Program-made: the position numbers and the translations under genes
NCBI GenBank assembly: GCA_965116905.1
Contig: OZ220732.1
Coordinates: 2,720,001 to 2,784,000 of the forward strand
Reading direction: 5' to 3'
Source: Longimicrobiales bacterium
GTDB lineage: Bacteria; Gemmatimonadota; Gemmatimonadetes; Longimicrobiales; Gaopeijiaceae
Length of the DNA: 64,000 bases
Notes under the pieces: model-generated
What the model saw: the letters and a program-made list of their open reading frames with translations, nothing else
Told to the model about the DNA's origin: nothing
The model's database searches: none
Shown: in pieces, positions 26,841 through 31,432 of the stretch
Position numbering within the stretch: the stretch's first letter is position 1
Layout: every line of letters starts with the position of its first letter

Positions 26841-28376
26841 TTGAAGAGAGAAATCCTGATCAGCACCTCGGACGAAGAGTCCTGGGTGGCGATCACAGAA
26901 GACGGCACACTTGCCGAACTCATGTTCGACCGGCCGGATCAGGGCCGGCTTGTCGGTGACATATTCCTCGGCCGTGTCGAGTCGGTACTGCCCGGCATTC
27001 AGGCCGCGTTTGTAGACATCGGCGAAGGAAAGGCGGGGTTTCTGCACGCGGCAGACCTCGCAAGACGCTCCGAAAACGGCGAATCCGATGACGGAGGGGG
27101 GCGCCGGCCACGCGGGCGCGACCGCAGTGCACCTCCGATCCAGGAGGTCCTGAAGAGGGGCCAGAAGATCCTGGTGAAGGTGACCAAGGAGGCGATCTCG
27201 ACGAAGGGGCCAAGGGTCACGACCGAGATATCGCTCCCCGGCCGTTTCCTTGTATACATGCCCGATACCGACCATGTGGGAGTGAGCCGGAAGATCGGAC
27301 ACCGACGTGAACGCGCCCGACTGCGCAGCATGGCCAAGGCGGTTGTGGAGGACGGTTCCGGCGGCGTGATCGTGCGTACCGCGGGCGAAGAACTGACGCC
27401 CGGGCGCCTGGAGAGCGAGTATCGCCATCTGCGCAAGCAGTGGCGCTCGATCCGCAAGAAGGCGGACAGGTCCGAGGCCCCCGCGCTGGTCCACGCCGAG
27501 GCGAAGCTGATCTCCGGAGTGATCCGGGACCTCTTCACCAACCGCTTCGACGGCGTCACGGTCGATGACCGGGACGTCCACCGGCAGATCGTCCAATACG
27601 TCCGGACCTTCGATCCCGATCTGCTCGATCGGGTCCACTACTATGCCGAGGAAGAGCCCCTGTTCGATCACGCCGGGATAGAGACGGACATTCAACGAGC
27701 CTTCGAGAGCAAGGTCGATCTCCCGTCCGGCGGGCACGTGATCATCGAACAGACCGAAGCGCTGGTGTCCGTGGACGTCAATACCGGGCGTTTCACCGGC
27801 AAGAAGAAGGACCCCGAGCAGACGATTCTGAAGACCAACCTGGACGCCGCCCGCGAGATCGCGGCGCAGCTCCGGCTGCGCGACATCGGCGGCATCATCG
27901 TCATCGACTTCATCGACATGGAGTCGCAGGAGAACCGGGACAGAGTCCTGCACGAACTGCGAACCTGTCTGGGCCGGGATCGGGCGCGCACGCGCACATG
28001 GGAGGTATCGGACCTCGGGTTGATCGAGATGACCCGGCAGCGCGTCCGTCCTTCGCTGCTGCAGTCGCTCACCGAACCCTGCGCCGCGTGCGACGGTAGC
28101 GGGCACGTGTGGACACCCACAACGATCGTCAGGGAGATCGAGCGCTGCGTGAGAAGGGCCGCTGCGGCCGGGGAGACGCAGGACATCCTGGTGCGGGTCC
28201 ATCCGGAGGTCGCGCTGCAGGTCATGGAATCCGAACCGCAGTTCCTGCGCAAGCTCAAGCGTCGGACCCGGCTGCGCCTGGATCTGCGGGACGATCCGCT
28301 CATGCGCCATGACGAGTTCCGGCTTCTGGCGGGGCGTGCCCGATCGGATGTGACGGCCAAGTACCGGGCGGCCTAG
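26841..28376 (+). CDS. rng: Rne/Rng family ribonuclease (RNase G-like)
   Basis: S1 domain (PGIQAAFVDIG), DVNTG, LRLRDIGGIIVIDFIDM, C-x-x-C Zn link; TTG start inferred. Confidence 0.92.
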   Translation: MKREILISTSDEESWVAITEDGTLAELMFDRPDQGRLVGDIFLGRVESVLPGIQAAFVDIGEGKAGFLHAADLARRSENGESDDGGGRRPRGRDRSAPPIQEVLKRGQKILVKVTKEAISTKGPRVTTEISLPGRFLVYMPDTDHVGVSRKIGHRRERARLRSMAKAVVEDGSGGVIVRTAGEELTPGRLESEYRHLRKQWRSIRKKADRSEAPALVHAEAKLISGVIRDLFTNRFDGVTVDDRDVHRQIVQYVRTFDPDLLDRVHYYAEEEPLFDHAGIETDIQRAFESKVDLPSGGHVIIEQTEALVSVDVNTGRFTGKKKDPEQTILKTNLDAAREIAAQLRLRDIGGIIVIDFIDMESQENRDRVLHELRTCLGRDRARTRTWEVSDLGLIEMTRQRVRPSLLQSLTEPCAACDGSGHVWTPTTIVREIERCVRRAAAAGETQDILVRVHPEVALQVMESEPQFLRKLKRRTRLRLDLRDDPLMRHDEFRLLAGRARSDVTAKYRAA

Positions 28377-28426
28377 GCCGGTTTCCCGGAGGTTGACCTT
28401 GGGCTCCGTGTAGATGACCTTTACAG

Positions 28427-28450
28427 GCTGCCCAGCGTCTGCCGGGCAGC
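28427..28450 (+). promoter_or_regulatory. Hairpin in the rplU leader (GCTGCCC...GGGCAGC), downstream of a TTGACC -35-like box
   Basis: 7-bp inverted repeat; TTGACC at 28393-28398. Confidence 0.3.
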
Positions 28451-28484
28451 GACTCGTCAGTAGACACCAACGATGGACGCGCAA

Positions 28485-28805
28485 ATGTTCGCTGTATTCA
28501 GGACGGGCGGGAAGCAGTTTCGTGCCGAGCCGGGTGCGACCCTGCTGATCCCCACGCTGGACGCGGAGCCGGGGACCACCGTCACCTTCGAGGAGGTGCT
28601 GTTGGCGTCCGAGGGGGGCGAGGGCGGAGAGGTCTCGGTGGGGGCGCCCGTGCTGGAAGGCGCCAAGGTAACGGCAGAGGTGGTGGCGCACGACCGGACG
28701 AAGAAGATCACGGTGTTCAAGCGCAAGCGGCGCAAGGGCTACCGGCGCAAGCAGGGACACCGGCAGGGCTTCACCGTGGTACGCGTCGCCGATATCGCCG
28801 TCTAG
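28485..28805 (+). CDS. rplU: 50S ribosomal protein L21
   Basis: [28 protein letters not shown]. Confidence 0.97.
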
Positions 28806-28816
28806 GAGGGATCCAA

Positions 28817-29074
28817 ATGGCTCATAAGAAAGGTGTCGGGTCGTCCCGGAACGGACGCGACAGCAACCCAAAACGTTTGGGCGTAAAGCGTTATGCAGGT
28901 GAGCGCGTGTTGGCCGGCAACATCCTGGTTCGCCAGCGCGGGACGCGTTTCCACCCGGGCAACAACGTGGGGAGAGGTCGGGACGATACCCTGTTCGCCA
29001 AGGCCGACGGTGTCGTGAAGTTCGAGAATCTCCGTCGGCGCCGGGTCGTTTCGGTCTACGACCAGGCCGGCTAG
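28817..29074 (+). CDS. rpmA: 50S ribosomal protein L27
   Basis: [29 protein letters not shown]. Confidence 0.98.
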
Positions 29075-29150
29075 GGGGCGATCGGCGGGCCCGTTTCGGG
29101 CTGTCGCGCGCAGGAGTATTCCGCTCGCGGAAGTGCCGATTCTCCACCCC

Positions 29151-29192
29151 GAAAAGAAAAAGCTTGCGCTTTTCCAATTCATGTATTAAAGT
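29151..29192 (+). promoter_or_regulatory. Sigma70-like promoter TTGCGC-N17-TAAAGT with upstream A-tract (UP-element-like)
   Basis: GAAAAGAAAAA at 29151-29161, -35 at 29164-29169, -10 at 29187-29192; AT-rich patch in GC-rich DNA. Confidence 0.55.
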
Positions 29193-29196
29193 GGTT

Positions 29197-29566
29197 TCCC
29201 CGAGGCGGAAGAGACGGACCGCAAGGAACGGAGCTGAAGCACCGGGGAGGGCCTCGAAAAGGCCGTCGCAGGGGGGAAACCCCCGGCAGATGGAACCGGG
29301 CGAGGTCCTAGGCGCCGAGAACGCCGGTGACGGGGTTCGAGGCGAGCGCGGTCTCTGGTTCGGCGGAGATTGCGACGGCTGCAGGGTCGCTGGAAGCAGC
29401 CGAAGTCCCTGGGAACGGGGGACGGCCTGGACGGCGGGAACGCCGGAAGGGTGAAGAGACGGAGAACCGGCCGTCGCACATGACGGCGCCGGAACGGAAC
29501 TCTCTGGACTCGCCAGCGAACGAAGCCCCCGAGCGGGTAGTGTGCTGCCCGCCGGGGGCTTCCTTT
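29197..29566 (+). ncRNA. Putative ~370-nt structured non-coding RNA of unrecognised class
   Basis: Bounded by a promoter and a terminator; many hairpins, four with GNRA loops on the + strand; no credible ORF. Confidence 0.55.
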
Positions 29567-29569
29567 ATT
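29522..29569 (+). terminator. Intrinsic terminator
   Basis: GAAGCCCCCG-A-GCGGGTAG-tgtg-CTGCCCGC-CGGGGGCTTC followed by CTTTATT. Confidence 0.75.
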
Positions 29570-29586
29570 CGGCTGGGTCGTCCCGT

Positions 29587-29976
29587 TTATTCGCCAGGGT
29601 CGTCCGAAGCAGGGTCGTCCGAAGCAGGGTCGTCCAGGGCAGCGTCCTCCGAGGTGAACTGCCGGGTTCGCGCCGATGCGATGACCTTCCAGATCAGATC
29701 GCGCACCAGTTCCTCGTCCAGGCCCGAGTCACGCGCCAGAACGGCGGCCCTCCTCACCACCGCCGCCTCTCGTTGCGGATCGGTGACGGGTAGCCCCAGG
29801 CGCTTCTTGAACTCTCCGATCCGGATCACGAGATCACGGCGCCGGGCCAGGATCTCGACCAGCCGTTGATCACATTCGAGTACGGCATCGCGCAACCGCG
29901 CCATGTCGTCGCTCCAGGCCCGGGCACGCTCACCGCGGGCAGCGCCCTGCTCCGAACGGGCGTCTTCGCTAGGCAT
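29587..29976 (-). CDS. Chorismate mutase type II (AroQ-like)
   Basis: RLRDAVLECDQRLVEILARR...IGEFKK...VTDPQRE; start could be at the later MARLR. Confidence 0.85.
   Translation of the reverse strand: MPSEDARSEQGAARGERARAWSDDMARLRDAVLECDQRLVEILARRRDLVIRIGEFKKRLGLPVTDPQREAAVVRRAAVLARDSGLDEELVRDLIWKVIASARTRQFTSEDAALDDPASDDPASDDPGE
29595..29635 (+). repeat. 15-bp tandem repeat CAGGGTCGTCCGAAG x2.7 (DDPAS tail of chorismate mutase)
   Basis: Read directly from the sequence. Confidence 0.9.
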
Positions 29977-31432
29977 TCACATACCGATCGACGTGATCCG
30001 CGTCCTGTGCCTTGCCGAGCAAACTCACGACCAGGAGGACGGGTACGTGGACCACCAGCCCCAGGATGCCCTCGTGCATCCCGAACGGCTTGAGTTCCGG
30101 GAACCGGAAGAAGAACACCGAAACGGCCGAGCCGGCCACCAGCCCCCATACGACACCGGCGGTGGTGGCTCTTCTCCAATACATCGCTGACAGCAGCGCG
30201 GGCATGAACTGCCCGATGATCCCGTAGGAAGCGAGCAGGAGGTCCACGAGCGAGAACCTCTCCACCAGCGCGAAGAGGTAGGCCAGGGCTCCGACCGCCA
30301 CGACCAGCACTCGCATCAGCAGTCGCTGCGCCCGATCCGTGAGCCGTGTGAAGGGCTGTACGCCGTCCTGGACGGCGACCGACGCGGCGCCGTGAAGCAG
30401 GGCGTCGCCGGTGGACATGGAGGCGGACAGCGCCCCCGCGCAGAACAGGCCGACCACCAATGCCGGCAGATCGGAGCGCAGGATCAGGAAGGGCAGGATG
30501 AAGTCGGACTGCTCGGGAGACTCCGGGAACATCACGCCGGCGAACCCGATCAGGAAGACGGGAATGAGGAACAGCTGAAACGTGGGAAACAGGATCACGG
30601 TGCGCCGAATCGTCGCATCGCTCCGGGCCGTGAAGGCCTTCATGAACAGGTGCGGCCACATGGTCAGCCCGATCGCGCTCGCGAGGATCGCGGTGGAGTA
30701 CGCTCCCCAGCTCCATGGCTCGCCGCTGCCGTCCAACCCGGGCAGGGACAGCAGCTCCGGGCGGTTGGCGAGGATCTGTTCGAACATCGGACCCACGCCG
30801 CCGTAGAGCCGGTTCGGGAGATAGATGCCGAGTGCCCAGGCGATGCCAACCATGAAGACGCCCTGGAAGGTGTTCGTCCACCCGACCGCGGACACGCCGC
30901 TGGTCAGCACGTAGAGGAGGACGATTCCGTAGGCTACGGCGGCGCCCGCCGCGAGAGGCACCCTGCCGTCGGTCACCGCCTCGATCACAATTCCGGCGCC
31001 GCGCATCTGGATGGTGACGTACGGAATGAACGCCGCCAGGGTGAGGAGCGCCATGACCGCCGACAGGGCGCGCGACGGAAAGCGGCCCACGAGCAGCTGC
31101 GCCTGGGTGACGAATCCGAAGCGCCGTCCCAGCGCGGCGGCCTTGGGGCCCATCGCGTACCAGGGGGCCATGCCCAGCACGCCGTAGGTCAGGATGTAGA
31201 ACGCGGCCGCGCCACGAGAGTAGGCCCACCCCGGGCCTCCCAGAAAGGCGAAGGCGGAGAAGACGGTGGCGCCCGTGATGAAGTACATGACGAGGAGGCC
31301 GAAGTCCCGGTCGCCGGCGACAAAGCCCTGGACGCTCCGGGACGCCCGCCTGCCCGCGACGACCCCCACACCAAGCGTCACCGCCAGGTACGCAAAGATG
31401 ATGAAGGTGATGATGCTCGACTTGTCCATCAC
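29969..31432 (-). CDS. Sodium:solute symporter family transporter
   Basis: ATVFSAFAFLGGPG, GVSAVGWTNTFQG, AGALSASMST; about 13 TM segments. Confidence 0.92.
   Translation of the reverse strand: MMDKSSIITFIIFAYLAVTLGVGVVAGRRASRSVQGFVAGDRDFGLLVMYFITGATVFSAFAFLGGPGWAYSRGAAAFYILTYGVLGMAPWYAMGPKAAALGRRFGFVTQAQLLVGRFPSRALSAVMALLTLAAFIPYVTIQMRGAGIVIEAVTDGRVPLAAGAAVAYGIVLLYVLTSGVSAVGWTNTFQGVFMVGIAWALGIYLPNRLYGGVGPMFEQILANRPELLSLPGLDGSGEPWSWGAYSTAILASAIGLTMWPHLFMKAFTARSDATIRRTVILFPTFQLFLIPVFLIGFAGVMFPESPEQSDFILPFLILRSDLPALVVGLFCAGALSASMSTGDALLHGAASVAVQDGVQPFTRLTDRAQRLLMRVLVVAVGALAYLFALVERFSLVDLLLASYGIIGQFMPALLSAMYWRRATTAGVVWGLVAGSAVSVFFFRFPELKPFGMHEGILGLVVHVPVLLVVSLLGKAQDADHVDRYVNA

Follow-up and report, generated by a model that had tools for sequence, protein, structure and literature searches.

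Large, highly structured RNAs are, to our knowledge, rare in bacteria. Those whose work is understood have central tasks (RNase P, tmRNA and self-splicing introns), and from the orphan RNAs raiA, OLE, ROOL and GOLLD unexpected RNA-only structures have recently emerged. The Gemmatimonadota, the little-studied phylum to which the organism examined here belongs, are abundant in soils, sediments and sponges. The raiA RNA is abundant, stand-alone and 200-250 nt long, with two pseudoknots and an unknown biochemistry, according to the accessible portions of PMC12968392 and PMC10861870. In ROOL and GOLLD, kissing loops that covary turned out to join separate molecules (PMC12286853, accessible portion).

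The window analysed here is a 64,000-nt stretch of the genome of a Longimicrobiales bacterium. In it, rne, rplU and rpmA (L27, PF01016; 28817-29074, plus strand) lie upstream of a predicted non-coding RNA gene on the same strand (29197-29569, about 373 nt), termed here the triple-pseudoknot RNA. A convergent chorismate mutase gene (PF01817; 29587-29976, minus strand) follows, and both neighbours lie outside the element. The gap between the end of the rpmA stop codon (29074) and the start of the chorismate mutase stop codon (29587) was 512 bp, not the 510 bp given in a preliminary description of the window; all motifs quoted in that description, including its inverted repeats, were found in place. 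The locus is almost certainly a real structured RNA gene, and the family to which it belongs is a conserved, structurally well-supported and apparently undescribed large non-coding RNA. The earlier interpretation was supported, but the three pseudoknots, the layout of a conserved core with a variable 5' part and the phylum-wide, multi-copy spread had been missed.

Gene boundaries and transcription

A 381-nt stretch carrying the RNA folded with a z-score of -6.3, and none of 100 shuffled sequences was equally stable. The fold energy was -207 kcal/mol on the plus strand vs -162 kcal/mol on the minus strand. Among 31 aligned copies, conservation set in at the promoter and ended at the T tail. The lengths of these copies left a remainder of 0, 1 and 2 on division by three in 16, 6 and 9 cases, and because of this scatter the overlapping ORFs are not considered to have a conserved reading frame.

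The sigma70-type promoter (29151-29192, plus strand) consists of a variable, UP-like A-tract (29151-29163), a -35 box TTGCGC (29164-29169), a 17-nt spacer and a -10 box TAAAGT (29187-29192). All 31 aligned copies had TTGC and TAnnnT unchanged, in contrast to the drifting spacer and upstream DNA. A consensus scan flagged neither a promoter nor a terminator at the locus (0 and 0), and the assignment of both therefore rests on comparison. The promoter boxes noted previously were accordingly present and conserved but escaped the scan. The proposed terminator hairpin (29522-29562) with its tail CTTTATT was likewise found, but its loop also pairs with an upstream loop, so it is not just a terminator. 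Five T in eight positions at the base of this last hairpin were present in only 38 of 67 diverse homologues. From the promoter and the T tail we infer that transcription runs from about 29197 to 29569.

Across the family, a sigma70-like box pair was present upstream of 68 of 116 copies and in 11 of 117 downstream controls. A scan with the sigma54 box consensus gave matches upstream of 5 of 116 copies, all 50-75 nt before the core, and in 1 of 117 downstream controls; the genome background was 0.0015 per scanned window. To judge by these boxes, paralogues of the RNA may be under different control. At loci L118, L119, L120, L121 and L129 the sigma54-type box takes the place of the sigma70 boxes, and L129 adjoins a divergent gene for a response-regulator sigma54 activator. 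Copies with Gemmatimonadaceae titles (L175, L209, L259, L188, L251, L227 and others) share, by eye, a recurring near-palindromic box resembling GGGA(A/T)TTCCC, about 90-105 nt upstream of the core and just 5' of the presumed promoter, which is possibly an operator. In several genus members (L115, L149, L150, L153 and L154), short tandem repeats with a CAACGG(G/A)GGTG core widen the distance between rpmA and the promoter; they are absent from the window.

Expression was examined in assembled contigs, not raw reads. In run X5, a coral metatranscriptome obtained by RNA-seq, one contig covered 29294-29462. Contigs from runs X2 and X4, which are only guessed to be RNA, covered 29209-29514 and 29269-29511, ending at most 3 nt apart before the terminal hairpin. 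These contigs, from three runs of three studies, lay wholly within the gene and were 97-98% identical to it. They left rne, rplU, rpmA and the chorismate mutase gene uncovered, and in a 20-kb control region around tmRNA contigs of X2-X5 were absent apart from one 30-nt end; such absence was in neither case counted as evidence. The contig of run X1, a sponge sample labelled as RNA, spanned the whole region (27896-30368) as DNA would, and may be DNA. It also carries one extra unit of a 15-bp tandem repeat at 29603-29640 of the window, which encodes a DDPAS-repeat tail on chorismate mutase. The contigs confined to the gene are a weak hint of the discrete transcript that had been suggested; the full-length RNA is a prediction.

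Nested stems and long-range pairings

The predicted fold comprises a dozen hairpins tied together by three long-range pairings. The lineage-variable 5' part (29197-29344) would form three long irregular arms (29197-29248, 29249-29308 and 29313-29344), GNRA-capped and interrupted by purine-rich internal loops; by RNAalifold, 11 of its 38 pairs showed a double change among 16 close homologues. Measured as the distance from promoter to core, this part varies by lineage from 60 to 220 nt, being about 140 nt here, about 60-100 nt in distant families and about 220 nt in genus g66. The resulting RNAs are about 290-450 nt long. Where four GNRA loops had been counted there are five (GCAA, GAAA, GUGA, GGAA and GGAA), and the GNRA hairpins were kept in 30-31 of 31 genus copies. 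The hairpin GGCCT-cgaaa-AGGCC, listed earlier, is probably not part of the conserved fold. One of its 5 pairs showed a double change, and 143 of 500 shuffles scored as high; for a competing helix (29249-29256 with 29301-29308) the values were 3 of 10 pairs and 12 of 500 in the 16 close homologues, and RNAalifold picked the latter. The short hairpin is probably an alternative to this longer helix, and the preference indicated by the alignment is modest.

The core begins with a hairpin at 29347-29374, in which 5 of 11 pairs had double changes. Within its loop GUUCGG, UUCGG (29359-29363) is the 5' strand of pseudoknot A. The next hairpin (29376-29402) has a near-invariant 13-nt loop and a stem whose pairs were among the top covarying pairs. 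This loop contains an unpaired GGU (29385-29387) and the 5' strand of pseudoknot B, UCGCUGG (29387-29393), and its positions 29385-29393 were 95-100% conserved. Two further arms (29405-29451), at 29405-29423 and 29426-29451, are both GNRA-capped here. They are followed by a multibranch domain (29456-29511) closed by GAG (29456-29458) and CUC (29509-29511), in which the closing pair 29457-29510 covaried with z 11.8 in an alignment fitted to the model. The domain holds a hairpin (29470-29487) with the kissing loop GCACAU (29476-29481), the segment CCGGA (29489-29493) and two small hairpins. In all 67 diverse homologues, the 3' strand of pseudoknot B, CCAGCGA (29513-29519), could form five or more pairs with its partner loop. 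The RNA ends in a terminal helix of 17 bp (29522-29569, including the tail CTTTATT), with the loop GUGUGC (29540-29545) engaged in pseudoknot C; the helix and its tail are likely also the terminator. The distance from CCAGCG to the terminal loop was 19-24 nt in 71 of 71 sequences.

Comparison bore out the nested fold. In a model-free alignment of 33 sequences, 19 of the 84 proposed pairs had double changes, a number reached by none of 500 shuffles, and 93.9% of cells could pair, against 38-50% in slid controls; the structure tested was itself drawn from these sequences. Among 65 diverse matches (mean identity 57%), aligned by fitting to the nested model, the top covarying column pairs were the proposed stems.

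Pseudoknot A joins the loop UUCGG (29359-29363) to CCGGA (29489-29493), pseudoknot B joins UCGCUGG to CCAGCGA, and in pseudoknot C the loop GCACAU kisses the loop GUGUGC of the terminal hairpin. None of the three was contained in the covariance model used for alignment. At least five contiguous pairs were present in 64, 67 and 46 of 67 rows for A, B and C, respectively, and in 1 and 0 rows for controls; the shortfall in C is partly due to misalignment. When partners were swapped at random among 45 non-redundant rows below 75% identity, 0, 6 and 0 of 10000 permutations for A, B and C scored as well, in a test that ignores descent. In a test on 35 nearest-neighbour pairs, each sequence being used once, the own partner was better/worse than the neighbour's in 16/4, 5/1 and 13/3 cases. 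After removal of four rows from unpublished genomes (33 pairs) the counts were 15/6, 5/0 and 12/3, and 3/7 and 5/4 for mismatched controls. This last result is modest (p 0.02-0.04), with 6 pairs favouring the swap for pseudoknot A. Compensatory changes were present in A and C (e.g. UUGGA/UCCAA, GAUCAG/CUGAUC; GCAUCU/AGAUGC, GUGUGU/ACACGC), while pseudoknot B and the unpaired GGU before it were 95-100% fixed. The invariance of B is partly a matter of ascertainment, 32 of 71 rows having been found by a pattern demanding it, and it also held in a pattern-free alignment. Covariation of this kind is shared by intramolecular and intermolecular pairing and cannot separate the two. A possible fourth pairing, from a 5' arm, was seen by eye in distant copies.

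Comparison with described RNAs

In the window, Rfam 15 gave no family at the gathering threshold except tRNA elsewhere, and the best match in the region of the RNA had an E value of 5.3. Twenty distant loci gave no match at E ≤ 1, and 9 more only chance miRNA or hairpin matches. The preliminary description had been unable to assign the RNA to a class, and this held: Rfam matched no family, while homologues were numerous and showed the covariation and compensatory changes expected of a folded RNA. The open literature that was searched, including PMC12990946 (accessible portion), gave no description of it; the supplements of PMC5737381 and PMC11109978 lay outside the search and could bear an unnamed motif. 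In their accessible portions, PMC8632094 does not include Gemmatimonadota among the phyla covered and bioRxiv 10.64898/2026.09.22.753630 does not mention "Gemmat".

The RNA resembles type A RNase P RNA and tmRNA in its size, strong sigma70-type promoter, GNRA loops, long-range pseudoknots and sequence-fixed central helix. It differs from them in lacking the signature boxes (P4), the tRNA-like ends and the tag frame, and in being dispensable. That it has the size of these RNAs and is neither of them, as was first thought, agrees with the presence of both genes elsewhere in the genome: RNase P RNA (RF00010) was found at C1:4009374-4009755 with 255.7 bits and tmRNA at C1:2654724-2655078, and ARAGORN found no tmRNA in the window. 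In RNase P RNA, P4 and the GGU of L15 form an active or binding site. By analogy, the fixed helix B and the unpaired GGU might be the active or binding site of a new ribozyme or of an RNA that binds tRNA ends. Only these elements are fixed in sequence while the other long-range pairs drift, and large ribozymes have a similar size and a similarly GNRA-rich periphery. The genome already has a canonical RNase P, though, and the RNA has no helix closing its 5' and 3' ends, no substrate or tRNA neighbourhood and no Rfam ribozyme match, besides being dispensable in part of the genus. On balance a catalytic or tRNA-gripping role is decidedly unlikely.

The regulatory RNAs 6S and CsrB/RsmZ were compared in the same way. 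A divergent 6S RNA at this locus would be in keeping with the result that RF00013 had no match anywhere in the genome (97% complete, single contig), in which a divergent 6S may have gone unrecognised. However, 6S is a long rod with a central bubble, whereas the fold here is multibranched and pseudoknotted. With CsrB and RsmZ the RNA shares its length, its own promoter and terminator and many GGA triplets, as a protein sponge might. The 18 GGA triplets nevertheless equal the shuffled mean of 16.7 (375 of 1000 shuffles as high) and are not the conserved part, so that GGA is not enriched. Furthermore, none of 20 genus genomes contained csrA, although 14 of them have the RNA, nor did csrA track the RNA in the order (13 of 65 positive vs 17 of 86 negative genomes). 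A divergent 6S or a CsrB-like sponge is thus largely refuted and scarcely credible. A relation to SRP RNA was also rejected: AGCAG near 29395 looked SRP-like but varies and pairs locally. An SRP-like match elsewhere in the genome (C1:2883879) had 35.4 bits, under the cut-off. Retron, DRT and OMEGA guide RNAs and Y RNA go with an adjacent reverse transcriptase, an IscB/TnpB nuclease or Ro60; none of these was found among the 97 nearest neighbour proteins, and the genome itself had no Ro60 (TROVE).

The likeness to raiA (also named ModT) lies in a conserved pseudoknotted core, variable or optional peripheral stems and disparate neighbours, as far as the accessible descriptions go. In raiA, P1 joins the 5' and 3' ends and PK1 and PK2 share one linker, whereas here the 5' end pairs locally, the 3' end is a self-contained, terminator-like hairpin, and the three pairings come from three different loops. 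The raiA RNA is single-copy (PMC10861870, accessible portion), unlike the triple-pseudoknot RNA with 2-4 copies in 27 of 65 genomes; it occurs in Bacillota and Actinomycetota, while the RNA described here was confirmed in Gemmatimonadota. The raiA RNA is also very abundant and part of an RNP from which KhpA/KhpB were pulled down, whereas a KhpA/B-type KH domain (PF13083) had no match over the cut-off in the present genome. A search of this genome with RF03072 gave no match at E ≤ 1, in a comparison in which no control genome passed the cut-off and hence no true positive was available. Searches with RF02032 (GOLLD) and RF03087 (ROOL), also run with no true-positive control, were empty.

GOLLD and ROOL share with this RNA an ornate fold of many stems and covarying kissing loops, and GOLLD also a conserved 3' and a variable 5' part (PMC12286853, accessible portion). 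The resemblance is one of plan and not of homology. GOLLD and ROOL measure about 550-830 nt, against 290-450 nt here, and occur in phages and prophages, often near tRNA genes, whereas this RNA is chromosomal and lies among housekeeping genes. They form protein-free homo-oligomeric cages; the triple-pseudoknot RNA is known here from its sequence. It might nevertheless, like OLE, ROOL and GOLLD, be an RNA-only homo-oligomer, anything from a dimer to a cage, with molecules bridged by the kissing loop of the terminal helix and by the GNRA arms. The GOLLD-like layout, the fixed length of the terminal helix, the retained GNRA hairpins, the self-complementary ACGU in the kissing loop of many distant copies and the intermolecular nature of the covarying kissing loops in ROOL and GOLLD (PMC12286853, accessible portion) agree with this. 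The smaller size speaks against it, as do the absence of any real copy among 100 viral pattern loci and the presence of a tRNA near only 1 of 52 loci. Moreover, the window loops GCACAU and GUGUGC are not palindromic, and all three pairings could be drawn within one molecule. We regard oligomerization as possible, if rather unlikely.

Distribution, genomic context and proposed role

By BLAST, 30 of 36 same-genus genomes had the RNA, with promoter boxes and fold conserved, and all 30 loci tested occupied the same site after rpmA on the same strand. The covariance model R1, built on the 239-nt 3' core, matched 43 of 151 genomes in the family, 65 of 151 in the order and 15 of 151 in the phylum, the present genome included; a broader model (R2) matched 22 of 151 phylum genomes, one of them by a partial 23-bit match. 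The spread was patchy, with 40 of 50 genomes positive in family f3 and 2 of 50 in family f2. Whereas the present genome has one copy, 27 of 65 positive order genomes carried 2-4. The unpublished genomes G056, G296 and G247 enter the genus, order and csrA tallies, four alignment rows, R2 and one RNase H neighbour count, and no claim depends on them alone.

Scanning 25 of the 64 parts of a genome collection with a pattern gave 121 loci, 75 of which were confirmed by R1. Of these, 72 bore Gemmatimonadota titles (Longimicrobiales, Gemmatimonadales, Gemmatimonadaceae and others) and 3 were titled "uncultured bacterium", so that every confirmed record naming a taxon was from the Gemmatimonadota; the best-scoring named records were mostly Longimicrobiales. 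The other 46 loci reached at most 26.5 bits with R2 and were confirmed by neither model. Among them, L297 (26.5 bits, Acidimicrobiales title) was rejected as a member outside the phylum, as it reads as coding DNA and has no terminal helix. In metagenomes (21 of 64 parts scanned) 120 loci were found, and 65 of the first 80, which were scored, were confirmed. The wider-gap version of the pattern caught only 32 of 49 known distant members of the family, so that the lack of confirmed loci outside the phylum does not amount to absence. In two other phyla, with 151 genomes each, no member was found, one 22-25-bit match being devoid of the fixed loop, and viral homologues were rejected, since 0 of 100 pattern loci (63 + 37) were confirmed.

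The genomic context differed between lineages. In the 53 matches outside the closest group, the next gene was convergent in 24, on the same strand in 26 and missing in 3; the same-strand genes belonged to many unrelated families, and none was conserved. The view that the RNA stands alone and is not a cis-acting leader thus holds family-wide. A cis-acting element, whether a 3' extension of the rplU-rpmA operon, an attenuator, a terminator or a riboswitch, would explain why the RNA in the genus always follows rpmA on the same strand. But it has its own conserved promoter, is not beside rpmA outside the genus and precedes a convergent gene here, and five genus members keep rpmA and the chorismate mutase gene without it (four with a short gap, one with other DNA, none with a trace of the RNA). 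A cis role is therefore most improbable. In the same 53 matches, lipB lay upstream in 18, from two families, and RNase H convergently downstream in 17; this position is probably an older site. In genus g66 (L035, L036 and L043) a second conserved intergenic block lies just 3' of the RNA, and at L117 the 3' block leads into a gene with several S1 domains (rpsA-like), of which it may be the leader. A tRNA gene was within 1.5 kb at 1 of 52 loci. Elsewhere in the present genome, outside the window, 17 tRNA genes lie on one strand within about 2 kb (G000:C1:1296478-1298432).

The multiple copies, the tandem and inverted duplicates, the sites that differ by lineage and the clean presence or absence at the rpmA site could also point to an RNA element that is selfish or mobile and is copied by an enzyme whose gene lies elsewhere. 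Against this stand the single copy in the present genome, the site shared by all 30 genus loci tested and the position beside lipB across two families. The duplicates include the promoter, whereas copying through RNA would leave it behind, and no mobility gene adjoins: reverse transcriptases, transposases, HNH/RuvC proteins and guide-RNA nucleases were all missing from the 97 neighbour proteins. Mobility, already weakened by these results, is very unlikely. The duplications of RNA and promoter include tandem copies of 440-620 bp in G010 (L027) and G035 (L049); G035 has a third copy, inverted, at a distance of 15 kb. In G184 (L046), duplications of 0.5-1.3 kb form a patchwork.

The reading we prefer, whose chances we put at about even, is that the RNA may be a stable scaffold acting in trans, which, by analogy with raiA, would bind a partner through its near-invariant loop and helix. 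The transcript would fold into a compact core locked by the three long-range pairings. The stems, pseudoknots A and C and the GNRA arms, whose sequence is free and whose pairing is kept, would be architecture; loop 29383-29395 and 29513-29519, whose sequence is fixed, would be the working surface binding a cellular partner. The neighbours of the RNA are freely exchanged, and it is cleanly absent from some genomes. The role would be accessory and tied to physiology or stress, because the RNA is lost from smaller genomes, occurs in extra copies and has some sigma54-type promoters. Same-genus genomes without it averaged 3.4 Mb (n = 6) vs 4.4 Mb with it (n = 30; p 0.0007), related genomes not being independent. 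The search for a partner covered csrA, Ro60 and KhpA/B, and in the present genome Ro60 (TROVE) was absent, as was any KhpA/B-type KH domain over the cut-off. A bolder reading, which we consider unlikely, is that of an RNA-only machine class confined to the Gemmatimonadota, in which GGU and helix B might catalyse a reaction or grip tRNA 3' ends, kissing loops might build oligomers and paralogues might answer to different sigma factors.

In plan the triple-pseudoknot RNA resembles the ornate orphan RNAs, yet it belongs to none of the raiA, GOLLD and ROOL families; its function we infer. It adds a further family of large RNAs with its own fold, in a phylum that goes unmentioned in the accessible portions of the RNA-discovery papers searched, and its terminator hairpin doubles as a tertiary contact. 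The family offers hundreds of diverse sequences, and its naturally occurring forms range from a minimal one of about 290 nt to an extended one of about 450 nt. Together with the natural presence and absence of the RNA within one genus, this makes both its structure and its function directly testable.
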